From: Eledone cirrhosa
Taxonomy: Eukaryota
Reading direction: 5' to 3'
DNA length: 64,000 nucleotides
Assembly (NCBI GenBank): GCA_964016885.1
Contig: OZ024744.1
Coordinates: 59,148,001 to 59,212,000 of the forward strand
Shown one piece after another: positions 2,282-41,235 of the stretch. A program made the position numbers and the translations under genes. How positions within the stretch are numbered: position 1 is the stretch's first letter; every line of letters starts with the position of its first letter. The notes below the pieces were generated by a model. It ran no database searches. It saw only the letters and a list, made by a program, of their open reading frames with translations, and was not told where the DNA came from.

Positions 2282-2771
2282 TGAAAATTAACCTGAAAAT
2301 AAAAACTGCCACCAACCTGAAAATAAAAACTGCCACCAAATTAAAGCACAACTGGCCTGATATTGTTGTTTGGGACCACACATTGAAAACGTGTTCTGTT
2401 GTGGAGATCAGCTGCCCACTTGTGTAAACGTTGTCAGAAAAATACAGGAGAAGGGGGACATCTACGGACCATTGATGAGGAGTTTACAAATCCATTATCC
2501 AAGATACACCTTTAGCTTCATACCCATCATTATTGGTGCTACGGGTTATATACCAACCCGCTTGGACCAAAGTATGACTGAACTTGGATTTGCGGACAAA
2601 GAGCGCAGCTCCCTAATTCATAGTCTACAAATGGCTGCGATAGCCGGCACCTTCAAAATTTGCAAAACATTCTTGCGATTCAAAGGATGACAATTTCTTT
2701 TCTTTTACAACCTTGCCACCAGGGAGGTGGCCGGTCAAAAGAATATACTCGAAATTAAGAGAAAGAGATAA
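2282..2771 (+). mobile_element. 5'-truncated R4/Dong-clade LINE (second subfamily), RLE domain plus 3' UTR
   Basis: HNWPDIVVWDHTLKTCSVVEISCP (PD..E/D RLE motif), then a frameshift, then PIIIGATG...KICKTF. Homologous to 39256-39675. Flanked by (CATA)n on both sides, with a short tandem duplication at the 5' end. Confidence 0.85.
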
Positions 2772-3292
2772 CATACATACACACATACACACATACATAC
2801 ATACATACATACATACATACATACATACATACATACATACACACATACATACATACATACATACATAGATACACACACACACATTCATATATACATACAC
2901 ACACACATACACACATACATACATACATACATACATACATACATACATACATACATACATACATACAAACAGACACACGCACACAGATACATACATACAC
3001 ACACATACATACATACATACATACAGACACACACACATACATACATACATACACACACATACATACATACATACATACATACACACACACATACATACAC
3101 ACACACGCACGCACACACATACATACATACATACATACATACACACATACATACATACATAGATACACACACACATTCATATATAGATACACACACACAT
3201 ACATACATACATACATACATACATACAAACAGACACACGCACACAGATACATACATACACACACATACATACATACATACATACAGACACAC

Positions 3293-3323
<31 letters not shown>

Positions 3324-3432
3324 TACATACATACATACATACACACACACATACATACACACACACGCACGCACACACATACATACATACATACATACAT
3401 ACATACATACATACATACATACATACATACAT
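2772..3432. repeat. Compound (CATA)n/(CA)n microsatellite with a higher-order internal duplication
   Basis: Direct repeats. The block at ~2870-3130 recurs at ~3160-3430. Confidence 0.95.
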
Positions 3433-4044
3433 GGTGGTGGCTGCCAACTCGTTTTCGAGTACGGCCACTACTTTATATCCATGTAGGAGAACCCCTACCG
3501 ATGCGCTGAACGAGTGTGAATTTTTAGTCCAGCCAGCGACTTGAAAACTCTGGTACAAACATTACACCTGTGACAATTATTGACACATAGTGCTGGGCCC
3601 ATGGTACCATGTGATGACAAGTGCAGAGAGATCTCCAGATATAAAGCAATGCCTGTGCCGTGATGCTTTTATAGTGAGCAAAGGCACTGCACAAAGCCAG
3701 TCCCACTCTCTTAACCAAGATGATATTTACCAAAAAGAAGAACAAGTCAACATCATTGGATACCATCAGGGTTGCAGGTGTTACATCAGAGTTTTCCTTC
3801 TCCTAGAATTCTGCCTTGACAAAGGTTAAGGGGTCATCTCTCCCGGTGATTTTGGATGGCCATTGACTCTTAAGAGCTCCTTTGCCCTTTGACAGGTTTT
3901 GTTTTTAGTCCTGCAGGATGTCCAAAGTCACCCTCCTCACCAAGAAACCTTGGTGGGGTTGCCAGTTTAGTCGCCAACGACCCGACCATGAGACAGGTTG
4001 TACTGGGATACATGTTACCAGTAGCACCAACTGGTGACCTGGCA
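3433..4044 (-). mobile_element. Apparently full-length (~610 bp) RTE-derived bipartite non-autonomous element
   Basis: Longest copy. Its 5' end coincides with those of the copies ending at 11785 and 18250. Confidence 0.8.
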
Positions 4045-4233
4045 TAACATATATATATATACATATACATATATACATATATATACATATACATATATAC
4101 ATATATATACATATACATATATACATATATATACATACATACATACACATACACATATATATATATATATATATACACACATACATACAAACATACACAC
4201 ATACACACATACACACATATACATATATATATT

Positions 4234-21059: not shown

Positions 21060-24000
21060 CACCAGGGCAAGCGCCCTCTCTCAATTTTTCCATTTCTCAA
21101 ACTACAGGTGTATATTCAGAGCGGTCCCGTTCACTCGGACCATTCTCGCTACATTCACCCACCTTTCAACAAACTTGCTAGAAGGCAGTACTTGCCTCTC
21201 CACCCTGATTTTCCTCTTCAAGTGAAACTTGATAAAGTTAATTAGGGATTCGCCGAAGAGGAAAGTATCTGTCTTTAACCCTTTCAACCTTGTCCACCAC
21301 ACAATCATTTTGCCATGGCCACCAGGCAGATGAAAACCGCCTGCCCTTCCTCCTCGAAGGAAGACGGCGAGACCATCTGCACAATGGACTCAGTCAATAA
21401 CCGGATCAGTCCTACACGCGACAGCAACTGTTCGACAGCTCCACAAGTCAGCAATGCTCGGACACTTAACGAGTGCGTGCACGACGGTCTCGTCGCTCTG
21501 CGCGCATCTCGAACAGGCTCGGCTGACGGCACTTCCGTGCCTGTAGAGCTTATCTCGAACCGGCAACGCTCCCCGGTAGCACTGCCAGGCCAGGGATTTT
21601 TGGAAGTTATCCATAGGCCCTGGGCTGAAAGTTCTCCGGAAGAGAGCAAACAGCTGATCTGCTTCGACGCCCAGGATCTCTCCGAGAACGTCGTCGCTCT
21701 TCCCCTCCACTAGTCCTCTATAGAACGCCGAGGTGGATGTTCCACCGATACTGGTGCCCAGCTGGCAGAGGGCAGTGAGCGCCTGGAGACATTCTAGTTT
21801 CCAAGCGCTATCTTTTCCTGACCCAGGACTGCAGTTCGGGCAAGGAGACGAGCTGTGGGAAAACGTGCCTGGCGAATGGCGACCACACCTGTTCACCGTC
21901 AAGGAAGCACCAGAGATGTCACAGCCTCAGCGCATGTTTGCGCATCATCAGCCATGGCATGCCCAGTCCTCCGCGCAACGGGTGTTGACAGCAGATGGAT
22001 CGTCTGACCATGGGAGCGCGTCCCTTCCACAAAAAGCGGAAGAGGAGGCGCTCCATTTTGGTGAGAGTTGGGCCGGGGCAAGGGACGACGGTGAGGCGGT
22101 AGCAGATGATAGATGCGATGTACGCATTCGCCACTTCCGCCCGGCCTTTCAGGGACAGCTTCCTCTCGGCCCATTTCTGGGTGAGGGAGGCCACCCTGCT
22201 CGTCACCTCGCTCCAGTTTTTCTCCATCTGGAGGTCCGGTCCGAACCAGACCCCGAGAAATTTAACCGGTCTGTCCGTCCAACGCCCCACCATGCTGTCG
22301 GACAGCATGGACTTGCCTCTCCAGGTGCCGAGCTGCAAGCCCACCGACTTTTCCTGGTTTATCTTTGCTCCTGTCACCGCTTCGTATTCCTTGAGAGCGG
22401 TACCAAGCATCTGGACGTGTCTGGTGCTCGACACCACCACGGTGACGTCGTCGGCGTAAGCCGATTCGGATTTCCCGCATCCTAGTTCGCGTGGGACTCC
22501 CCTCATCGCCCCCAGTTTGTGCTGTAACGGCTCGAGAGCCAATACGTACAAGAGGGACGAGAGGGGACAACCCTGGCGGACCGAGCGCATGATGCTGAAC
22601 TGCTGCGACAGGGGACCGTTCACCCTCACAATTGAGCAGATGTTGCCGTACATCGCAGCGATCCAACTCCTGAAAATGGGCCCGAAACCGGCTGCCTCGA
22701 GGACCGCTGCCAGGTACCGATGGTCGATCCTATCGAATGCTTTGGATTGATCCAAGTTGATCAGGGCCCCACCCGTGCCAGGTTCCTTAACCACCCTCTC
22801 TATGATGTATCGAATGAGGTGGAGGTTGTCGTGTATGGATCTGTCCGGAATGGCGCATGTCTGCGCCTCTCCCACCAGACCCTTGACGACAAGCCCCAAC
22901 CTCGTTGCTAACACCTTGGCCCAAATCTTGAACTCTGCGTTTAGAAGGGTTATGGGCCTTAAGTTATCAATAACATCCTCCTTGTTCGAGTTTTTTCTCA
23001 GCAGCGCCACCGCTCCCCGGCTCACAAAATTGGGATTGCTCCCGCTCTGCTGCCAGTTGCAGTAGACGTCTGCCAAGAGGTCACCGAACAAGTGTGGCAT
23101 AAATGCATAAGGCTCGTAGGGCAGACCATCCAAACCTGGCGATTTACCCCTTGTGCAGTCAGCCATCGCTTCCCGTATTTCACCGGCTGTTATTGGCTTT
23201 TCGCAACACTGTTCTGCGGTCGTCGAGAGCCAAGGCAGTCCGTCGAGGTATACACTGAAGACCATACCCCGATCCGGGCTGCCGCTGCTCCCGAACAGTT
23301 CAGCAAAGTGCTGCTGAAAAGCTTCACACATCTGCTCGGGTTCGAGCAACACGCGCCCGTTTTTATCAGATAAAGAGCGAATTGTGGCTTTGTTGCCACG
23401 TCGCGCCTCTGCCACCCGGGCCCATTGGACGGCTTTTGTCACATCGTGTTTCAGAGCACACGCTATAGCTCTGACAACGTAGCCTTCGTGTTTTGCGTTG
23501 AAGAATTGGTCGAGTGCCAATCTCGCCGCAAGCACGTCGGTTGCTAAGCCTGTCCTAAACGCCTCTTCTAGCTTTCTGACTAGCTCTCCCTTTACTCTAT
23601 TTTCCTCTATCACTAGTCCTTTGCTAAACCTAATCAACTCTACTTTAATTGCCTTTTCAGGGCGAACCCCCACCTGTTGTTGACGATCGCTCCCGTCAAC
23701 ACCCGCTTAACTAGTACGCTAATGCGGTCTCTGTAGGCTTTGCGCGCCGGGAAAGACGCGTTCAGCTTCCAATAACCGGGTCCTTGACTATGAAGTCTGT
23801 CTATGTCGATCTCACAGATCACAAATTTGCGTTCTGTGTAGTCGACTATTTTAAATTGTGGACAACTTATACTAGCCTTATCTAGTTCTCTGCAGAATAC
23901 CCTATCGAGATACAATCTGGATGACCCGATGCGGTTTGTCCAAGTCCACATTGGCACATTCGGGTGATCCAGTCGATACCTGTCAGACAGTTCAAAACGT

Positions 24001-24509
24001 CTGAGCAGGTTGGTGAGGCTCTTGCACCCTCCTCCCCTATCTACTAGCCCCACACAATCCCAGCGCGCATCCAAGATACCGTTCCAGTCACCCACTAGCA
24101 CTAAAGAGCGGGACGTTCCAAGAAAGGTCTCTAGACGTCTAAAGAAATCTGGCCGTCCTGTCCCTGTCGGGGCATAGACGGCTACTAGCCTGAAAGCGTT
24201 GCCTTCGGTGACGGTCACGTCCAACACCACCGACTTACCTTCTGGGTCTAGGAAGATGGCCCGTATGGCGAGATCCAAGCCTCTCCGAAAAAGGACGGCA
24301 ACCTCACCCCCCGATCCTGGACGGCTGGGAGATGCGTATACATCGTAGCCGCCGAAGATCGGTGCGAAGGCTCGTGCTTCGGAGATTCTGGTCTCGCTGA
24401 TGGCCACCACATCTATGTTTAGTGACCTGAGGTCGTTGAGCAGGTGACTCTGCTTCCAAGATGACCCCAGACCACGTGTATTTATACTGCCTATTCTGAG
24501 TACGGCCAT
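21060..24509 (-). pseudogene. Tx1 ORF2 (APE endonuclease, reverse transcriptase, zinc finger), disrupted
   Basis: GSINTRGL, ISET, AVYAP, VGDWN, YLDRV; KSPGLDGLP, RPITLLN, LDQSKAFD, RQGCPLS, AYADDV; CSRCAQSDETVVHALVKC. Confidence 0.92.
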
Positions 24510-24541
24510 GTTGGATGAGAAACGGGGCAAGTGAGAAAGGG

Positions 24542-26333
24542 TCACTTACCTTGATGCTCGTGTGGTGAAGGGACAGTAGAACCGTCTCTTTGGCTGGTCA
24601 TGGGTGTTTCCAAGAGGATGTCAGTGTATATCCTCTTGATAACCGACCCTCTGAAGTCTCCAACTGCGTTGGGGGATTTTTGTTTTAAAAGTGTGTACTG
24701 TTCTATTGATATTTCAATGATGCTTATGTTTGTCGGGAGAGTTCTTGGTGTTGGTGGGGTGTAGTAGTTTTTTTCTGTGATGTCTGTGTGCTGCTTTATA
24801 TATTGTATGAGTTCTTTTTTTGCCATGTTTATGACTGTGTACTTTTGGGAGGCAGGGGTGATTTTGTTGCTGTTTTCTTCTTGTTGCTATTTGGTGTGTG
24901 TGTTTTGTTTTGTTTGCGCTGTTGGTGTTTTTGGTGATGCTGGTGGTGGTGTGGTTGTTGTTGGCAGTGGTGCTTGTTCTGGTGATGGTGGTGGTGTTGC
25001 TGCAAGTTTCCTTGCTGCCTTTACCCCTCTTTGTGTGCCTTCGCTTTTGGAGGGCGAAGCTAAGGGTTTTTTTCTTTTTTCTTTTTTGTGGCAGACCGTT
25101 TGTCACTTCACTCCCGCCTCAAACTCCATGTCGGATTCCGCGGCGTCTGGGAGGGGTATGTGCTCCACGGTTGTTGGTGGTGGTAGTGGAGCCCTCTCCG
25201 GCAATTTTGTTGCTGGTGCAGCTACTGCAAATGTATCTATTGGTGTTGCCGCCACTGATGCTGCTGCTTTAGTTGTCCGTGGCCTTGGTACGGGTGCCAC
25301 GGACGTTGCCCTCCTACTTACCGTTTAAGGGGCTTCTGCATTTGTTGCCTGCCCTGCTCTTGGTAGCAGCGGACCAGGTATTGGAAGGAGAGGGGCCTTC
25401 TTCTTCGCTGTCTTCTGCGGGCAAAAGGCCCTGAGGTGACCCTTTGACCCACAGAGATAACATTTTGACAGTCTTCCTTCTACTCTTATAGGGAGTGGGA
25501 GTCCTTCCTCAACGTCTATGATATCGGGGATAGCATCGATACATTCCTGGTCAGTTTGTATAAGCATTTGCATGCCTATACCTGACCAGTTCCCTCTCCC
25601 TATTTTCTCTACTTGCAGCATGGTCGTCCTGTCCTCGATACCAGCAAGGACAGCCGCGGCCAGCCAAGGTATGGGCACGTCGGGTGGGACCTGGGTCACT
25701 TTGACCCTTACAATTTTCTGCCCGCAGTAGGAGGGCACCAAGAATATCTCCTCACTATTTAGGGTTTCCAAAGAGTGAGACTTCGCTTCTTGGGGGGTGG
25801 CGAAAAAAGTACGTTTACTGTGGCGTACTTTCTGCCTCGGGTGATGTGGGTTTTGCGTGCCCAGACGCACCCCAAGGCCTTTTGGATTTGAGCCTCCGTG
25901 GCTCTCTCCACCCGATGTGAGATTTTGCTTACGGTGCGGTAAGTCACCGTCCGTAGCTGCTGGTCCTTGAAAAAATCGGGTGGAGGTTTCAGGGAGACTC
26001 TATTGCTGCTTCTTGTCACCATGGCCCTTGCGACTGCCATCTCCTCCTCTGTGACTAACACTGTTTCGATATTTCGGGCGACACCTGCAAAAGAAGTGGT
26101 CCCTTTTTCAGCAGCACCACTATTGCTGCCGCTACTGGTCTTGCAGGTGGTGCTGAGATCGCTGTTACAGGTATCGATGTCATTGTTGATGTTTTCGTTG
26201 GTAGTGTTGTTGCTGTTGTTGTTTTCGTTGATACTGTTGCTGTTGTTACTGTTATTGTGGCTGTTGTTATTATTGTTGTTTTTGTTGATACTGTTCCTAC
26301 TACTATTGTTGTTGTGGCTGTTGTTATTGTCAT
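24542..26333 (-). pseudogene. Tx1 ORF1 (gag-like), disrupted
   Basis: Zinc knuckle CYLCGSKGHLRAFCP; split over several frames. Confidence 0.8.
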
Positions 26334-26862
26334 TCTTATTGTCGTTCTCGACTTTACCGCTGTTATTTTTGTTGTTGCTGTTGTTATTGATGCTGTTGTT
26401 GTTGGTGTTATTGTTGGTTTTGTTTGTGTTAGAAATATTTGGTAATTTTAAATCTGTAACAATTGTGGGTATGGTGTGGTGTGCGGTGGGCGGAGGCTGG
26501 GGAGTGCTGCCCGGAAGAGTGCTTGACCGGAAGGGTGCTTGACCGGAAGGGTGCTCGACCAGAAGGGCCAGCAGGTCTGCCTCTCTCTAGGGTGGTCAGC
26601 GAACGTGGTAGACGTCAGTTTTGGAGCTCCCGGTTAACGAGTTGGATTGTACGCACGTGGGAGAGGAGAAACCAGCCATTGGATTAGTGGTGCCAGCGAA
26701 AGTGGTAAGTGAGATAGCTTTTTCTAACCACAAGCTATTTCGGCACTGGAAACTGAGATCTGATTGATCAAAAAAAAAGAACTTTCTCGAAAACAAAGCT
26801 ACTGGAAAAACAGAGAGGAGTCAGTTGTTTTTTATTACTTACCGCAAGACAAAATTAGGATA

Positions 26863-29800
26863 TGGCGACGAGATTACGAATGAGCGGAGAAGCGATTAGA
26901 GCATTTACCGGTGAAAGCGATGTTGTCGCTTGGCTGCGAAAAGTCCGGCTGGTCGCAAGCTTACAGAAGATAGATGTGGCTGGCCTCATGGCACTGTACC
27001 TCGAGGGGGATGCGTTGGCACTCTTCCTAGAGATGGGTGAACACAGCCAAAGGGATGCGCAAAAGATTGAGAGGCGTATGATGGAAGCGTTCGCGGAAAG
27101 ACCGTTAGCCGCTTTTGCTAAGCTGGTAAGGATTAGGTGGAACGGTGAACGCGTTGACATTTTCGCAGCGGAAATACGGCGATTGGCCATGTTGGCTGGA
27201 TATCAGGTGGAATGCGAACGCACGGTGCGGTTGGCGTTCATAAATGGATTTCCAGGCGACATAGCGGTGAAACTGCAACAAGTCCCGGGTTACAAGGAAA
27301 TGGAGATGCGTGCACTGGTGGAACAAGCCCGCATCATAGCAGAAGATGCCAAGAAGAGTGTCGCAGCGATAGCAATGACAGAGGCCCAAGGCAGCCGGCA
27401 ACGAAATGGTGAAAGGGAGGTAACCACGGCACGCGGTCGCCCGCGAGCCTTTAAAGGTCGCTGTTTTAGGTGCCAGGGCCCGCACATGGCGAGAGACTGT
27501 AGAGAGTTAAGGCCGGACAAAATATGCTACCGGTGTAAGCGACCAGGCCACATCGCTACTAGCTGCGACCAGGGAAAACGATCCAAGGGGAACTACTGCG
27601 CCGGTAGCTGCCCCTTACGAGTAGAGGCGCTGCCCGTGGTGAAAGTTTTTGTGAGGGCAAAGCCACAGCGAGCCCTCGTGGACACGGGCTGTACGACGAC
27701 ACTTGTGACCGCGGGCTGGCGCAGAGGTGGACAGGGAAGAGCAGCGTAAGGGCAGTCGACAGTAGGAAAATTGAATGCCGAGGTCGCAGAGAGTTGGAGA
27801 TGGCGGTACGGGGAAAGAAAATAAGGCTTTCTGCCATCGTAGTCGACAACATGGTGGATGGGATCGGCGTAGTTATGGGCATGGACGCAATTGGCCGTCT
27901 AGGAGGCATCACAGTGAACAACGCCGGTGTGTCGTTTGGCGGCGCCGCATCTGTATGCGCTGTGAGTATGCGACAGGAGAACCAGAAGGCCCGCGAGGAG
28001 AAATATCCCGCTTACACTGTACTGGACAAAGACTTCAAGGCCGTGTTCGATTGGCAATGATGGGTTGTTGAGTGGTACTGGAAGGGAGAACCACCAACAC
28101 TGAAGACCAAAGTGGGCTGCTATCAACACACATTGAAGGGAGACATTAGGAGCGAGTTCGAGCGAGAGGTAGAGAGATGGATTGAGGAGGGCATACTGCT
28201 TCCCTGGAAAGAGGAGGTGAAGTGCAGAGTATTGCCGTTAATAGCGGTGGCGCAACCCACGAAGAACAAAGTGAGGCTGGTACTGGACTTTGGGGAGCTG
28301 AACGAGCACATGTCATGCCTCACGGGTGGCGAGGTCACGGATGTCTGTGGGGAAACCCTGTGTGAGTGGAGACGCATGACGGGGGCTTCCGCAATCGTCG
28401 ATCTAAAGTCGGCATACTTACAATTACACATAGATGAGAAGCTCTGGCAGTATCAGCTGGTCAGGTATAAGGGCCGGGCATATTGCCTGACCAAGATCGA
28501 TTTCGGGCTGAGCTCTGCACCGAAGATCATGGCGGCGGTCCTCAAGACCATTCTGGGAAAGGCCTACAAGATGAAGAGGCCACTAATTCCTACATTGACG
28601 ACATCCTAGTGGACGAGTCTGTAGTGTCGGCGGCGGAGGTCACGAGCCATTTGCAGAGGTATGGACTGGCTGCGAAGCCGTCAGAAGCGTTGGAGGGAGG
28701 AACCGCGCTGGGACTTAGGCTACGGCGAGACAGGATGGGCGTGTTAGTATTACAGAGGGAAAATGAAGTTCCAGAACTGGGCCCAAGTATGAGTAGGCGG
28801 GAGCTTTTCTCGGCGTGTGGAAAGTTGGTATGTCACTACCCGATTGCTGGGTGGCTCCGGACGGCATGCAGCTATGTCAAGAGACTTGGAGTGACAGAGT
28901 GGGAGAGAGGACGGTGGCCATGATGCAGGAGATCGTAGAGAGGGTGATGGCCGACGACCCAGTGCGGGGACGCTGGTATGTTCCCAAAACGCAGAGCGAG
29001 ACCGTATGGTGCGATGCCAGCAGCATAGCGCTAGGTGCCACGTTGGAGATAGGAGGTGTTGAGTCGAGGATGCGCACCATCGAGATTCGCACCGACTCGG
29101 CTACTGTACTCGGATGGGTGAGATCAGTGCTCACCAGTGAGAAGAGAGTGCGAACGAGAGGGGCGGCGGAGATGCTGATAAAGCGCCGCCATGGAACTTT
29201 AGGAGAGCTGGCCACCGAGTTCGACCTGAGGCTGAGCGTAGTTTTCGTGCCCTCAGAGAAAAATAAGGCGGACGTTTTAACCAGGGTGAAGAAAGCCTGG
29301 ATGGAAGCGCCGGAGGATGTAGAAGTGGAGATAGCTGCCGTGTGTTGGCTGACCGAGTCGGATCTGAAAGGGTTGCATGACATGCACCACATGGGAGTGA
29401 ATAGGACTCTGTTCCTAGCCAGGAGAATCGACTCGGACGTTAAGACACAGTTCAAAAAGTGGTTAGAGGCTGCGTCCGATGTCAGTCCATTGATGCCGCC
29501 CTGTGTGTGCACGAAACGGGAAGCCTCCCGGTGGATCGCGACTGGAAGCGATTGGCGGTGGATGTAACACACTACCGACAGGAAACATACCTCTCAATGG
29601 TCGACTGTGGACCGGGACAGATGGCGATATGGAGGGAGATGAAGACTGGAACGGCCGAGGAAATCACGCGAACGTTGAGAGAGGTGTTCTTGGAGCGGGG
29701 CCCTGTGGACGAACTGCTGATGGACAACAGCGCAGCGTTCCGCTCCGAGGCGCTGAGGGAGATGCTCGATGGATGGAAGGTGGACCGTTTCTTCAGAGCA

Positions 29801-30165
29801 GCGTACAGGCCGAGCGGAAATGGAATCGTGGAGCGACACCACCGGACGATCAAGGCAATGGCGGAGCGGGGCCACATCTCACCAATGGAGGCAGTGTTCT
29901 GGTACAACATGTCCCCTCGGGTGGGACAGCTTGAGGAACGGTGCCACACAGAGCAGTATTCAGATACGAGTGGCGGCACCCGTGCACGCCACCACAACGG
30001 CCAGTGGAGAGAGAGAATGCATTCGTGCAGGTGGGCGAAGAAGTCTGGGTTAAGCCCCAGATGCACGTTGCACATCTCAATGGGGAAGGGGAACGGTGAC
30101 GGCCGTAAATTCCCAGAACAATGTGTCCGTGGACGGAGTACCACGTCATGTCCTGGATGTCTGTA
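26863..30165 (+). mobile_element. Ty3/Gypsy internal region (gag-PR-RT-RH-IN), frameshifted, LTRs not seen
   Basis: Two CCHC knuckles; protease ALVDTG; RT VDLKSAYLQ, FGLSSAP and SYIDDILV; RNase H WCDASS; integrase CVRC..LAVDVTH..LLMDN..SGNGIVER, lying after RT/RH. PBS-like TGGCGACGAG at 26863. Confidence 0.93.
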
Positions 30166-30452
30166 GAATTACTGTGTCAACTCTCTTTCTTGTGTTATCC
30201 ATGTTGAACTTTTTTTTCTTTCAAAAAATATTTTTACACAAATACGACACGCCGTAAAGGGGTGCCGTATTATTTACGAGTGAACCCCTGTATTAGGTGG
30301 GTCACTTCTTTTAAACTTTTATCAAATTTAAAACTTGAATAAAAGGTTTAGAACGGTTGAAAACGAGGTAAAACGTTGAAAAAAACTGGAGGCGATAAGA
30401 AGCGTGGCTTCACCTTCAATAATAATAATAATAATAATGATGATAATAATAA

Positions 30453-33400
30453 TGCTTTCTTTATTAACCACAAGGGTTTACATAAAGTAAACATTAAGGA
30501 CAGTACAGGACAATACAGGACGGTACAAATGGGCATTTCTGCGTGTAAAAAACAAAAAAAACAGGATCTAACAAAGAAAGAAACAATGAAAGATTCCCCA
30601 ATAGGGGGGAGACTTCCGAGGGACATTCGTGGAGAAAGCCCATTAAAAAAGTCACGGTAACCCTGACCACCAGGGCAAGTGCCCTCTCCCAGTTATCCCC
30701 CTTTAATTTACAGACACATACTCAGAGTAGGCCCATTCACTCGGGCCATACTTGCTTCTCTCACCCATCTTTCAACAAAATGCTGGGAAGAGCACTTCCC
30801 TCTCTACCCTGATTTTCCTTTTTAAATGAAATTTGAAAAAGTTAATCAGGGCATCACCGTCTTCAGACCTTTCAAACGTGTCCACCATACTATCTCTTTC
30901 GCCATGGCCACCAGACAGATAAAAACTGCCTGCCCTTCCCGGCTAAAGGAAGAGGGCGGGGCAATCCTCACGATGGACTCAGCTGATAACTGGATCCATC
31001 CTACACGTGACAGCAGGTGTTCGACATAAACCCACAAGTCAGCAATGCTCGGACACTGGACGAGTGCGTGCAGGACGGTTTCGTCGCCCTGCGCGCATCT
31101 CGGACATGCCCGGCTGACGGCACCTCCATGCCTGTAGAGTTTATCCCGAACTGGCAAAGCTCCTCGGTAGCACTGCCAGGCCAGGGATTTCTGGAAGTTG
31201 TCTATAGGCCCCGAAAGTTCTTCCGAAGAGATTGGCTAGTTGATTTTCGTCGACGCTAGAGTTTCTCCAAGTACGTCGTCGCTCTTCCCCTCCACTAATC
31301 CTCTATAGAACGCCAAGGTGGAGTTTCCACCGATCACATTGCCCGATTGGTCGAGGGCAGTGAGCGCCTGAAGACATTCCAGTCTCCAAGCGCTCCCTCT
31401 CGGTCTTCGCTTGACCCAGGACTGCAGCTCCGTCAAGGAGACGAGCTGGGGAAAGACGTGTCTAGCAAACGGCAACCACACCTGATCACCGCCGAGGAAG
31501 AGGTGGAGATGTCGTAGCCTGAGCGCGTGTCTGCGCATCATCAGCCACGGCATGCCCAGCCCTCCACGTAGCGGGTGTTGACAGCAGATGGAACGCCTGA
31601 CCATTGGAGCGCGTCCCTTCCACAAAAAGCGAAAGAGCAAACGCTCCAACGCAGTCAGGCGAGACTTAGGACAAGGCACGAGGGTCAGGCGGTAGATGAC
31701 GGACGCGATGTACGCTTTAGCCACCTCCGCTCGATCTTTCAGGGATAGCTTCCTCTCTGCCCATTTCTGGCTGAGAGAAGCCACCCTGCTCGTCACCTCG
31801 TCCCAGTTTTTGTCCGTCTGGAGGTCCGGACCGAACCAGACCCCTAGCAATTTAACCGGTCCGTCCGTCCAGCGCCCGACGACGCTGTTGGACGTCATGG
31901 ACCTGCCGCTCCAGGTGCCGAGCTGCAGGCCCACCGAATTTTTCTGGTTGATCATTGCCCCTGTCACCGCTTCGTATTCTCTTAGTGTAGTGCCGATCGC
32001 CTCGATGTGTTTGGCGTTCGACACCACTACGGTGACATCGTCCGCAAATGCTGACACGGATCTTCCGCATCCTAGTTCGCGTGGGACCCCCCTTAACGTC
32101 TCCAGTTTGTGCAGTAATTGCTCGGGAGTCAATACCTACAACAGGGACGAGAGAGGACATCCTTGACGGACCGAGAGCATGATGTTGAACGGTTCCAAAA
32201 GGTGACCGTTCACTCTCACCACAGAGCAGATGTCGCTGTGCATGGCAGCGATTCAGCCTCTGAAGACGGGCCTAAAGCCAGCCGCCCTCAGGACTGCCGC
32301 CAGATAACAATGGTCGACCCTATCGAAAGCTTTCGACTGATCTAAATTGATCAAGGACCCACCCATGCCAGGATCCCTAGCTAACCTCTCCACGATGTAT
32401 CGCATGAGGTGGAGGTTGTCGTGGATGGATCTGTCCGGAATGGCGCATGTCTGCGCCACTTCCACCAGACCACCAACGACAAGCGCCAACCTCTTTGCTA
32501 GCAACTTGGTCAAAATCTTGAACTCTGTGTTTAGCAGAGTTATGGGCCTGAAATTATCTATGTTATCCCCCTTGTTCGGATCCTTTCTCAGCAGCACCAC
32601 AACTCCTTGGCTCACAGAGCTGGAAATTCTCCCGTTCTGTTGCCAGTTGCAGTAGACGCCCGCCAAGAGGCCTCCGTAAAGTTCATAGGGCAGACCATCC
32701 AAACACAGGCGATTTACCCCTTGTGCAGCCAGTCATTGCCTCCTATACTTCAGCGGCTGTTATCGGCTTTCCGCAACAATCCTCCTCAGTGGCCGAAAGC
32801 CGCGGTAGTCCGTCGAGGTAGACACTAAAGTCCATCCCTCGATCCGGCCCGCCGCTGCCCCCGAACAGCTGAGCGAAGCGTCGCTGAAAAGCTTCACACA
32901 TTTTCCCGGGATCGAGTAGCATGCGCCCGTGGTGGTCCACCAAAGGCCGGATCGTGGCTTTGTTGCCACGACGCGCCTCCGCCACTCGGGCCCATTGAAC
33001 GGCTTTCGTCCCCTCGTGTCTGAGAGCACGCACCCTAGCTCTGATAACGCAGCCTTCGTGCTTTGCATTGAAGAATTGGTCAAGGGCCAATTTCGCCGCA
33101 AGTACGTGGGTCGCGATGCCTTTACTAAGCGCCTCGTCTAATTTTCTAATTAGTTCTCCCTCTGCTCTATTTTTCTCTATAGCTAAAGCCTTACTAAACC
33201 TAATGGACTCTATTCTAATCGCTCTTTTCAGAGCAAACCACCATTTGTTGTTGACGATGGCCCCCGTCAACGCCCGCTTAACTAGCTCGCTAATCCGGTA
33301 TCTGTAGGCCTTACGCACTGGTAAGGACGCGTTTAGCTTCCATTATCCGGGTCCTCGTCTATGAAGCCTATCTAAGTCAAGCATACAGATCACGAATTTG

Positions 33401-34823
33401 TGGTCCGTGTAGCTAACTATCTTGAATTGTGGACAGCCTATGCTAGACCTATCTATTTCCCCGTCAAAATACTCTATCTAGATATGATCTGGATGACCAT
33501 ATGCGATTTGTCCAAGTCCACATTGGCACATTCGGGAAATCCAATCGGTACCTGTCAGACAGTTCAAAACGCCTGAGCAGGTTGGTGAGGCTCTTGCACC
33601 CTCCTCCCCTATCCGCTAATCCCACACAGTCCCAGCGTGCATCTAAGATCCCGTTCCAGTCGCCCACTAACACTAAAGAGCGGGAAGTTCAAAGAAAGGT
33701 CTCCAGACGCTGGAAGAAATCAGGCCGCCCTGCTCCTGTCGGGGCATAGACGGCCACTAGCCTGAAAGCTTGCCCGTCTCCGCTGGTTACGTCCAGCACT
33801 ACCAACTTACCTTCTGGGTCCAGGAAGATGGCCCGTATGGCGAGATCCAAACCTCTCCGAAAAAGCACAGCAACTCCCCCCCCCCCGATCCAGGACGGCT
33901 GGGAGATGCGTACACATCGTAGCCGCCGAAGATCGGTGCGAAGGCCCGTGCTTCGGAGATTCTGGTCTCGCTGATGGCCACTACATCTATGTTTAGTGAC
34001 CTGAGGTCGTTGAGCAGGTGGCCCTGCTTCCATGACGACCCCAAGCCACGTGCATTTATGCTTCCTATTCTGACTGAGGTCATGTTGAAAAGGAGTGGAA
34101 AAGATGGGAAAGACCAATTACCTTACTTCTCGTAGAGGAAGGATGGTTTCTCCATCCTTCTCACTGCTTGTGGCCTCCTCCGGAAGGATGTCTTTATAAA
34201 TCCTCCTGGAGAGTGCTTGTCGGAAGTCTCCGATGTCCTTGGGGAATTTTTGTTTTAGTGTCGTGTACGTTTTCTGTGTGATGCGAGTGATTTGTATGTG
34301 TGGAGGTTGTGTGAATTTTTGGGGTGTTGTGTAGTCTTTTTCTGTGATGCTGGTGTTGTGTTGGATGTAGTGTAATAATTGTTTGCTGTTCAAATTTAAT
34401 GCTGTGTAGTGTGTAACGTTTTGGTTGTTTTGTTTTGTTTGCGTTTGTTGTGGGTTTGTTTCTGTTTCGCTTTTTGGTGACTTTTGTGGTGTTGGTGATG
34501 GTGGTGTTGGGGTTAATGATGGTGATGGTGTTGGTGATGCTGGTGTGGATGGTGGCATAGCTGTCCTAACTTGGTGTTGGTCTGTTAAAACCAGTAAATT
34601 TGTCGTTCATGTTTTTTTTTTCAAAGAAATATTTTGTTTGATAAATAAAAAGTTTAAGTTTTGGGCTCAAGGCCCCAATATTTTTTGTCCTTTTCAGAAA
34701 GCAATATATGTGAACTTATAAACACTTAACAACAAATATTTTCCATAACTGGCAATTTGAAACAACTGAAAACAACAAAACTTTGCGGAGCTCACGATAA
34801 TACGATTTCCTACGTAGGTCACC
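30453..34823 (-). mobile_element. Second Tx1-clade LINE; ORF2 present but disrupted, most of ORF1 deleted
   Basis: ORF2 from 34083 (MTSVRIGSINARGL) through AFADDV to the zinc finger CPRCAQGDETVLHALVQC. (AAT)n on both flanks (30418-30452 and 34824-34876). Confidence 0.92.
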
Positions 34824-37750: not shown

Positions 37751-38066
37751 ATAGAAAGTTGTATTAATGTGACAAGACATTTTACTGTTATATCAGGGTA
37801 ATTTGTCTGCTATTTCTAGCATGTCGTAAAACTCTTGTTTGTTCACACACACACATACACATGCACACACACACACACATACATATATTCATACATACAT
37901 ACATATGTACGTACATACGTACATACATACACACTTACATGCAAACACACACATATATAGATACATGCGTACGTACGTATGTACATACATACATACTTAC
38001 ATACATGCATACATACATACATGCATGCATGCATGCATGCATACATACATATATACATACATACAT

Positions 38067-38304
38067 AAAAAATTTTGCATCTAATAACTGCATATACACA
38101 TGTACAGATACAAAGCATATACACATGCACACATACAACTCAAAACATCCACATCCACACATACAATAACATCCATATCTACACATGCATGCATATCTAC
38201 CTAGTTGATGTTGTGTAAATTCCAATGAGAGAGTCTTGTGTCTATGTTAGAAACCGACTCTCTCTCTATTGGTAAAACTTTGTGAAATTATAAAACCAGA
38301 AAAA
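38067..38304 (+). mobile_element. Short 3' copy of the Dong-like LINE
   Basis: Matches 39658-39903; lies between (CATA)n tracts. Confidence 0.85.
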
Positions 38305-38328
38305 CATACATACATACATACATACATA

Positions 38329-39903
38329 GGGGCTAGATGAGAACATATCCTATAATGGTATCTGTAATAAAGAACGTGTAACCAGGGAATACTACACCCG
38401 ATTAAGAAAGATCTGGTCATCGGAACTCTCTGCGCAAAACAAAACAGTGGCTCACAATGTGTTTGATGTGCCTGTCCTAACACCAACGTTTGGAATACTC
38501 AATTGGACGATAGATGTAATCCGAGCAGTTGATGTTGGAACTCGAAAAATACTGAACAACACCGGAAACTTCCACATCAACAGTGACATAGACCGCCTTT
38601 ACTTGAAACGTAAGCAGGGAGGCAGAGGCCTAACATCAGTCCAGACAACATTTGAATGTTGCATCATATCTCTCCAACAACATCTACGAACCTCGAAGCG
38701 TAGGAGCCCGTTTCTCGAGCAAGTCTATCTGCATGAAACAGATAAGATCATGAGAGTTGGGAAGGAACTCCTTGAGAGATATTCCCTGTGTGATAATCAA
38801 AAACTCACACCCAGGGATGTCACTCAGCAGTATCGCAGTGAATCCATGGATGAAAAACTGCATGCCTATCAGCAAAAAATCATGCATGGATATGTTGCCA
38901 GGAAGCTCCAGAGTGAGAGTAATATAGATAAGGAAAGTAGTCTATCTTGGACCAACAACCGCTATATTGGCTCCCACTTTGAAGGATATGCTTTTGCAAT
39001 CCAGGAACAGGAGATTAGCACGAAATACCTGATTCACAAAAGAGATAGGGATGCAGGCAAAACACCTAGATGTGATAACAAGTGCAGACTCTGCAGAACT
39101 AACATCGAGGATATCACCCATGTCATCAGCAGCTGTCCAAAGATGTCATCGCGGTACTATCTACCTATGAGGCATGATGTAGTGGCCAAAACACTGTACA
39201 ATGCAGTTCGTATAAAGATAGCCCCGATAATAAACACATTAAAAGCTACAACAATGTGGAAGACATCCAAGTACATAATATGAAAGAGTACTGGTGGAAT
39301 GTTCCAGTAAAAACCCCAATAAAATGCAGGCATAACAGACCAGATATTATGATATGGGACAGGGAGAAGAAAGCATGCACAGTAGTGGAAATTAGTTGCC
39401 CAGCAGATGCCAATATAATATCAAAGATTAGTGAAAAGGAGAATATTTATGCAGAACTGATGAGAAATCTGCAGATACTCCACCCTGATTACACCTTCAG
39501 ATTTATGCCTGTGATTATTGGGGCACTGGGATATGTTAGTAACTGCCTCAATACAAATCTTGAGAAGCTAGGCTTCACAGGAACAGAAAGAACACAACTA
39601 GTTAGGAAACTACAAGTACAATCCATTAATGGAACAGTAAAAATATGTAAAACATTCCAAATATTTTGCATCTAATAACTGCATATACACATGTACAGAT
39701 ACAAAGCATATACACATGCACACATACAACTCAAAACATCCACATCCACACATACAATAACATCCATATCTACACATGCATGCATACATACATATCTACC
39801 TAGTTGATGTTGTGTAAATTCCAATGAGAGAGTCTTGTGTCTATGTTAGAAACCGACTCTCTCTCTATTGGTAAAACTTTGTGAAATTATAAAACCAGAA
39901 GAA
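38329..39903 (+). mobile_element. 5'-truncated R4/Dong-clade RLE LINE (RT thumb, CCHC, RLE, 3'UTR)
   Basis: RLYLKRKQGGRGL; AIQEQEI; CRLC..EDITHVISSC; RHDVVA; HNRPDIMIWD..VEISCP. One frameshift near 39230. (CATA)n on both sides. Confidence 0.9.
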
Positions 39904-39966
39904 CATACATACATACATACATACATACATACATACATACATACATACATACATACATACATACAT

Positions 39967-40998
39967 GGTGGCTGCCAACTCGTTTTCGAGTACGGCCACT
40001 ACTTTATATCCATGTAGGAGAACGCCTACCGATGCGCTGAACGAGTGTGACTTTTCAGTCCAGCCAGCGACCTGAAAACTCTGGTACAAACACTACTCTT
40101 GTGACAATTATTGACACATAGTGCTGGGCCCATGGTACCATGTGAGGACAAGTGCAGAGAGATCTCCAGATATAAAGCAATGCCTGTGCCGTGAAGCTTT
40201 TATAGTGAGCAAAGGCACTGCACATACATACATGGTGGCTGCCAACTCGTTTTCGAGTACGGCCACTACTTTATATCCATGTAGGAGAACCCCTACCGAT
40301 GCGCTGAACGAGTGTGACTTTTTAGTCCAGCCAGCGACTTGAAAACTCTGGTACAAACACTACACTTGTGACAATTATTGACACATAGTGCTTTACCTTT
40401 GGTACCATGTGAGGACAAGTGCAGAGAGATCTCCAGATATAAAGCAATGCCTGTGCCGTGAAGCTTTTATAGTGAGCAAAGGTACTGCACATACATACAT
40501 GGTGGCTGCCAACTCGTTTTCGAGTACGGCCACTACTTTATATCCATGTAGGAGAACCCCTACCGATGCGCTGAACGAGTGTGACTTTTCAGTCCAGCCA
40601 GCGACCTGAAAACTCTGGTACAAACACTACACTTGTGACAATTATTGACACTTAGTGCTGGGGCCATGGTATCATGTGAGGACAAGTGCAGAGAGATCTC
40701 CAGATATAAAGCAATGCCTGTGCCGTGAAGCTTTTATAGTGAGCAAAGGCACTGCACAAAGCCAGTCCCACTCTCTTAACCAAGATGATATTTACCAAAA
40801 AGAAGAACAAGTCAACATCATTGGATACCATCAGGGTTGCAGGTGTTATATCAGAGTTTTCCTTCTCCTAGAATTCTGCCTTGACAAAGGCTAAGGGGTC
40901 ATCTCTCCCAGTGATTCTGGATGGCCATTGACTCTTAAGAGCTCCTTTGCCCTTTGACAGGTTTTGTTTTTAGTCCTGCAGGATGTCCAAAGTCACCC
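39967..40998 (-). mobile_element. Three tandem copies of the RTE-derived bipartite element (39967-40222, 40234-40489, 40501-40998)
   Basis: Direct repeats with a 267-bp period, separated by short CATA runs. Confidence 0.85.
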
Positions 40999-41235
40999 TA
41001 CATACATACATACATACATACATACATACATACATACATACATACATACATACATACATACATACATACATACATACATACATACATACATACAGATAAT
41101 ATTGTTATTTATTATAGGAAATCAAAAGCAAATGAATGTGACTGCAAGAAGGGAGGTAATAAAGGTATGTATGTTGATGTAAATGTACATTTTGTAGTAT
41201 CTGAATAAAATGCAGACAATTTTCTCTCACGGCTA

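Follow-up and report, generated by a model that had tools for sequence, protein, structure and literature searches.

Two R4/Dong-type LINE families flanked by (CATA)n repeats in the Eledone cirrhosa genome, with relatives in CATA or CTTA repeats

Introduction

R4 elements occupy large-subunit rDNA and leave a short target-site duplication (TSD) of 13 bp. Dong elements carry a Myb-like domain and target TAA in most insects, molluscs and cnidarians (PMC7998251), and the targets given for Dong and for Waldo are TAA and ACAY, respectively (PMC3812793). In the 64,000-nucleotide stretch of Eledone cirrhosa DNA analysed here (the window), pieces of two LINE families, which we call A and B, lie embedded in arrays of CATA. 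Is this repeat a target that the elements' own protein recognises, a tail that the elements bring along, or a neighbourhood in which insertions happen to survive? The literature base also takes in PMC8967140, PMC10294476, PMC7650587, PMC5035012, PMC13580325 and PMC13708176.

Results

Nested elements and repeats in the window

Four element ends on the plus strand run directly into CATA repeats. Bases 1682, 2771, 38304 and 39903 each open with ACATACATAC, and the element sequences before them end in ..CCAGAAGA, ..GAAAGAGATA, ..CCAGAAAA and ..CCAGAAGA, respectively; no poly(A) stands at any of these four junctions. Family A accounts for three of the ends (1467-1681, 38068-38303 and 38329-39902), family B for the remaining one (2283-2770). 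CATA arrays precede three 5' junctions, at 2282, 38067 and 38328/38329. The preliminary description of the window had located both sets of junctions correctly, and its reading of the 3' ends as ..AA| holds for the position, with the boundary also readable as A|ACAT. A DNA transposon flanked by an 8-bp duplication has split the copy ending at 1681 and thereby conceals the fourth 5' junction.

The window opens inside this transposon (1-1466, unoriented; TIR TAGGCATAT, duplication ATATACAC). With L295:8076-10000 it measures ~2.4 kb; it carries a decayed ORF, sits in a family A 3' UTR and is probably hAT-like, judging by the length of its duplication. The older A copy that it splits has its other part upstream of the window (L295:7193-8075), preceded by a 17-nt imperfect CATA run, and its 3' UTR resumes at 1467-1681. 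An (ACAT)27 array (1682-1789), a truncated minus-strand copy of a short element C (1789-2196) and a (CATA)22 array (2196-2282) separate it from the B copy. This copy (2283-2770) is 5'-truncated, retains the RLE end and the 3' UTR, and is 96.5% identical to the full-length copy L285; its 5' end carries a duplication of 24 nt as well as 7 extra bases. A long imperfect (ACAT)168 array (2771-3432) forms its 3' flank and leads to a full-length element C (~612 bp, 3433-4046, minus strand).

In the second cluster, a degenerate (CATA)n array (37890-38067) flanks a 5'-truncated A copy that holds only the last codons and the 3' UTR (38068-38303; 96% to 38330-39902 and 95% to the full-length L094). (CATA)6 (38305-38328) separates it from another 5'-truncated A copy (38329-39902), the last ~1.57 kb of the 4.1-kb element, whose ORF lies in two pieces (38330-39283 and 39178-39675) with a 1-bp deletion near 39211. 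The pieces encode a CCHC zinc knuckle (CRLC..H..SSC; 39083-39136), which matches Pfam zf-RVT at E 0.0074, below its cut-off, and a motif (RPD..WD..E.SCP..K; approximate limits 39337-39450) that we take, by eye and from established knowledge of RLE LINEs, to be the core of the restriction-like endonuclease (RLE); the whole-protein fold matches R2. Downstream follow (CATA)15+ (39904-39966), three truncated element C copies (39966-40224, 40233-40491 and 40500-40999), placed on the minus strand on the reasoning that one of their ends is fixed and the other variable, and (CATA)23 at the end of the cluster (41001-41092).

The family A 3' UTR itself opens with a degenerate CA/TA-rich stretch (39676-39800 in the window), and the very short A copies L029, L075, L106 and L108 begin inside this stretch. 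The window also holds L1/Tx1-type LINE copies (21919-24545 and 30846-34122, minus strand) and a decayed LTR-type, Gypsy-like element (26859-30166) with a zinc knuckle and weak protease matches.

Element C is 612 bp long, non-coding and oriented opposite to A and B. CATA or TA repeats flank it on both sides in 27/29 genomic copies, and the window contains at least six pieces besides the full copy. BLAST gave no match of element C to the A or B pieces of the window; judged by a 5' motif, it may be of RTE-like origin.

One protein architecture, two families

Full-length copies measure ~4.1 kb (A) and ~4.2 kb (B), and copies within each family are 95-97% alike. Between the families the DNA matches in just three patches (64-73%), and protein identity across 961 residues is 49%. 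At this distance A and B are separate families, not the two subfamilies of the preliminary description, and they are not each other's nearest relatives in the RT tree. Both encode a single ORF with a putatively Myb-like N-terminus, RT, a CCHC motif and a PD..E..K RLE. None of 20 long A loci keeps the full ORF unbroken; in three B copies, which have CATA on both flanks, a frame of 1174 codons is intact. Pfam RVT_1 and zf-RVT are present in relatives. The model of the family A protein (968 residues, pLDDT 79.6) is nearest in fold to R2 (9nl3, E 2e-34, TM 0.66), and R2 chains match strongly in the RT portion only.

The N-termini of A and B show no C2H2 or CCHC zinc-finger pattern by eye. They align with those of TAA-flanked elements, and an N-terminal profile picks up the N-termini of the TAA clade (best E 2e-14, 30 sequences). 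An N-terminal domain of diverged Myb/SANT-like type characterises the R4 clade (PMC7998251). Here three helices are predicted, and the top structure matches are mostly Myb/SANT/trihelix domains, weak at a best Z of 5.7 against the tool's guide of 8; Foldseek with the N-terminal model gave no match at E<=0.001. Atlas Myb rows for the relative P0134 score 0.76-0.84, a lead only. Ahead of the first tryptophan, R-x(0,1)-NR occurs in 6/6 rows of the tetranucleotide clade described below, five with a following Y, and in 0/6 TAA-clade rows.

At the 5' ends, Rfam matched no HDV-like ribozyme in L094, L115, L182 or L183, and an HDV ribozyme descriptor found none in six test leaders, a weak test given that it recovered just 1/8 control leaders. 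The word GG[A/C]?YGTG stands near the 5' end in 5/6 clade members and, speculatively, is possibly an internal promoter element. Leaders that look tRNA-like by eye occur at the 5' ends of the TAA-clade elements L190, L198, L199, L201 and L203.

CATA flanks throughout the genome

We surveyed the flanks across the 3.0-Gb genome with three flank-free queries, taking the best 30 of 40 scored matches for each and adding 40 longer stretches: 20 for A picked by length, and 20 for B made up of 12 of the A-chosen loci and 8 further rows. Window loci were excluded and copies de-duplicated by flank. Because the copies are best-scoring matches, old copies are under-sampled. Outside the window, 96 of 115 3' ends lie at (CATA)n with a match of >=14/16 (A 59/67, B 37/48). 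A strict test finds (CATA)n at 95 of 129 5' boundaries (A 53/68, B 42/61), a count that retains the tandem near-duplicate pair L076/L077. Full-length 5' ends adjoin (CATA)n in 16 of 19 cases (A 10/12, B 6/7), and the three misses have a short CATA spacer behind a previous copy. By the terms of the preliminary description, a lack of 5' CATA in most genomic copies would have refuted its reading; most of the surveyed boundaries have it, and the frequency of 5' CATA, full-length ends included, argues against a mere repeat tail.

These rates stand far above background. Among 396,800 positions in 20 arbitrary 10-kb genome stretches, 0.31% pass the 3' test and 0.79% the 5' test, and no A or B copy lies in this 200-kb sample. 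TA repeats outnumber CATA there (4560 vs 268 bases), and a TA test is passed by 2.6% of background positions, yet by merely 6/115 A and B 3' ends.

Eight of the 34 5' boundaries that fail the strict test have same-family sequence upstream; the others, by eye, include tandem copies separated by a short CATA spacer, chimeras of A and B, arrays of TA and breaks by other elements, and a handful have unique flanks (for example L013, L116, L072 and L125). Some of the 19 failing 3' ends lie in (TA)n or (CA)n, so the specificity is not absolute. By eye, ACAT also follows each of a further 12 B copies outside the census counts, giving way to TA-rich arrays in two of them. A C-type end is reached by 24/115 of the 3' arrays. 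Family A is joined directly to family B at L055:1984 (minus) and L069:1227 (plus), possibly through template switches between the two RNAs.

A fixed 3' phase and free 5' phases

At their 3' ends, 53 of 67 A copies read AGAACATAC, and five more stop a few bases earlier but likewise continue into ACAT; among the B copies, 29 of 48 read ATAACATAC or AAAACATAC. The 3' phase is therefore fixed with an ambiguity of 1 nt: one A can be assigned to element or target, and the junction reads as A|ACAT or AA|CATA. In the two CTTA-flanked relatives with a 3' junction, C or G stands before CTTA, which favours a flank beginning at C. By contrast, all four phases occur at the 5' junctions. Among truncated copies, 38 of 74 5' junctions are free of overlap (last four bases of the repeat: CATA 18, ACAT 10, TACA 6, ATAC 4) and 35 of 74 share 1-5 nt of microhomology; long 'extra' stretches at such junctions partly represent mismatches to the reference copies. 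A fixed 5' phase was accordingly rejected, and the earlier description of insertion as in register stands for the 3' junction and falls for the 5' junction.

No convincing TSD was found among 79 copies with paired ends, of which those with imperfect 3' flanks were inspected. The two flanks differ in length. Of 76 paired copies, 47 have runs of at least 8 nt on either side; in these, the perfect CATA run has a median of 54 nt upstream vs 17 nt downstream, and is longer upstream in 33 and downstream in 13 (Wilcoxon p 3e-4). Where no nested element lies downstream (n=34), the upstream run is longer in 23 and the downstream run in 10 (p 0.002). The elements may prefer targets with a long array upstream, or integration may lengthen that array.

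A TAA-flanked family in the same genome

With a TAA-clade protein as query we found a third family, D, a canonical Dong family whose 1216-codon ORF is 32% identical to A. Its 3' flank is (TAA)n in all 16 copies (11/11 short and 5/5 long loci) and never CATA; a divergent match, L261, has an imperfect TAA run. Family D is young, with many unbroken 1216-codon frames (L262-L272, L289-L293). In L291 a Tx1-like piece, resembling the L1/Tx1 copies of the window, adjoins the TAA array ahead of the element.

Relatives and their targets

A metagenome scan gave at least 80 loci; among the matches listed, eight fall in the clade of A and B (FastTree, 59 rows). Five of them have visible flanking repeats: L182 has CATA on both sides, L183 has CTTA on both sides, L181 and L184 have CTTA at the 5' end and L185 at the 3' end, these four CTTA loci sharing similar record prefixes that may point to one host. 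L186, L187 and L206, also clade members, show no flanking repeat. Among the more distant loci, those whose 3' repeat can be seen carry (TAA)n in most cases. One TAA-clade element, L223, is followed by (CAA)n and then (CAG)n instead of TAA. Viral contigs yielded no relative.

An IQ-TREE analysis of the RT region (35 hand-chosen rows, 452 columns), rooted on one long L1/Tx1 branch with its row from the window, recovers the tetranucleotide clade that includes A and B at 100/100, the TAA clade at 97/96 and the two as sisters at 96/96. An rDNA R4-like clade (98/95) lies outside them, so that each of the three target groups forms one branch. Together with the architecture, this tree supports the R4/Dong membership that had been proposed, its anchors being set by target and by named nematode RTs, and R2, NeSL, HERO, Rex6 and Bombyx Dong lying outside its rows. 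B groups with an Argonauta protein (100/97); the closest named protein is that of Argonauta hians, at 65% RT identity. Since A has no settled place among the CTTA users, CATA and CTTA users are mixed. The proposed lineage with CATA specificity is thus supported by the CATA flanks genome-wide and needs widening, as the larger lineage uses CATA or CTTA.

L225 and L235 interrupt 28S rDNA, show a duplication of 13 nt and cluster with the named nematode RTs. A reading of them as R2 was dropped, and they were reread as R4-like; from the insertion site and the length of the duplication, we take them to be R4 proper. Their identity to the nematode RTs is 33-34%, and their nearest named relatives (P0252, P0257 and P0260) come from the rotifers Adineta and Rotaria, at 44-50%.

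Discussion

These observations make it probable that A and B are R4/Dong-type LINEs inserted inside (CATA)n genome-wide, in one orientation and with a fixed 3' phase, through recognition and nicking of the repeat by the protein that they encode. Because relatives also lie in CATA or CTTA repeats, the branch likely cuts its own four-letter target; for A and B, flanks and phase point to a cleavage specificity for (CATA)n. By analogy with R2 biochemistry, the RLE would nick the (TATG)n strand opposite A|ACAT or AA|CATA, and the freed 3' end would prime reverse transcription on the tail-less end of the RNA (TPRT). The 5' end, full or truncated, would then be joined to the repeat upstream, whatever its phase, in many cases with the help of the 1-5 nt of microhomology. 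The Myb-like domain, with its clade-specific R-x(0,1)-NR-x-Y arm before the first helix, could help to pick C[A/T]TA over TAA; that domain and arm set the target is a weaker suggestion, and an RNA extension may contribute to the choice. Fresh 3' flanks and the co-resident short element would supply further targets, and a continual supply of this kind would lead to nested clusters such as those of the window.

The RNA rather than the protein could choose the site. A read-through (CAUA)n tail would pair with loosely nicked (TATG)n, the protein having little base preference, and this would place the repeat on either side and fix the 3' phase. R2 can be redirected by homology arms (PMC13586686), and the interleaving of CATA and CTTA users in the tree implies that the target changes easily. 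However, some 3' flanks keep to the repeat for 3-4 bases before changing to TA or CA, and in others variant units lie beside the junction, as expected of a genomic target and not of a copied tail, and target class follows protein clade, with three groups on one branch each. Although compatible with recognition by the protein, guidance by RNA therefore seems to us unlikely.

Two simpler accounts would dispense with targeting altogether. If CATA were the elements' own 3' microsatellite tail, such as RTE-type LINEs make (PMC9115989), 5' CATA would arise through clustering, as copies landed in their neighbours' tails, and 8/115 3' arrays indeed lead into another full-length A or B. But 5' CATA at 95/129 boundaries, against 0.8% in the background, contradicts this account; the upstream run exceeds the downstream one, the reverse of what a tail would give, and landing in tails so frequently would itself be targeting. 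We regard it as very improbable. The other account, in which insertion is random and copies persist only where the DNA is neutral and rich in repeats, fits a microsatellite-rich genome, yet cannot yield a fixed phase, a fixed orientation or avoidance of the commoner TA. It is refuted by the phase and by family D, with its TAA/CATA split in one genome, and we give it next to no credence.

Target recognition by the proteins of A and B also allows a bolder and more tentative extension, for which we see perhaps a modest chance: an old, unnamed sister lineage of Dong in several animal groups, in which a Myb domain with a basic arm reads C[A/T]TA and CATA and CTTA have been switched more than once. 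Were the upstream repeat, whose runs are three times the length of those downstream, lengthened at integration, such a lineage would make its own targets and, with them, many long CATA arrays.

A and B are thus R4-clade members that work like Dong, and not Dong in the strict TAA sense. Like Bombyx Dong, DongAg, the snail DongBg and the ostracod Dong1/2, they combine a single ORF, a putatively Myb/SANT-like N-terminus without zinc fingers, RT and RLE, and like Dong they lie in a microsatellite (PMC7998251, PMC3812793). They differ in the repeat, (CATA)n or (CTTA)n in place of (TAA)n, in forming a clade of their own beside the TAA-flanked elements (35-43% RT identity) and in the arm ahead of the Myb-like helices. 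Dong also carries a 5' HDV-like ribozyme (PMC3774820), of which our weak test found none. The nematode R4 elements share clade and architecture with A and B, whose fold, in family A, is like that of R2, but they target rDNA and show 25-31% RT identity, whereas A and B are flanked by microsatellite; the 13-nt duplication of L225 and L235 has no readable counterpart in A or B. The R2 clade combines N-terminal zinc finger(s) with Myb and targets 28S; A and B have neither zinc finger nor rDNA flanks.

Waldo (WaldoAg1/2, WaldoFs1; R1 clade) targets ACAY, which includes ACAT (PMC3812793), with an APE endonuclease of a class unrelated to the RLE, and a common target would be convergence. Togen (NeSL-related, (TG)n) and the HERO microsatellite families are, like A and B, RLE elements aimed at microsatellites (PMC4640811), but belong to other clades and use other repeats. 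Fell 2025 screened 4,464 animal assemblies for such target preferences (PMC13586686). We came across no main text in the searchable literature, a body apart from Repbase, Dfam and Fell 2025, that assigns CATA or CTTA to an R4-clade element as its target. Microsatellite (TAA) targeting by Dong is known already, and the CATA/CTTA-flanked sister clade may be new. The 'Dong-R4' elements of O. vulgaris comprise five recently active families with 1129 insertions and 4.73 Mb, at ~4.2 kb each (PMC13282606, Table 1); this is near A and B, a likeness of length alone, and a term search of the available main text found no stated insertion target.

With these families, a genome that houses a TAA family also contains members of a strongly supported sister clade whose targets are four letters long, and a single zinc-finger-free scaffold spans a natural series of targets (TAA, CATA, CTTA and rDNA). 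It thereby becomes testable what sets the target of R4-clade elements: the Myb domain, the RLE or homology of the RNA. Targeting by A and B also accounts for nested repeat clusters in the genome, and CATA microsatellite markers designed there will often have multicopy flanks.
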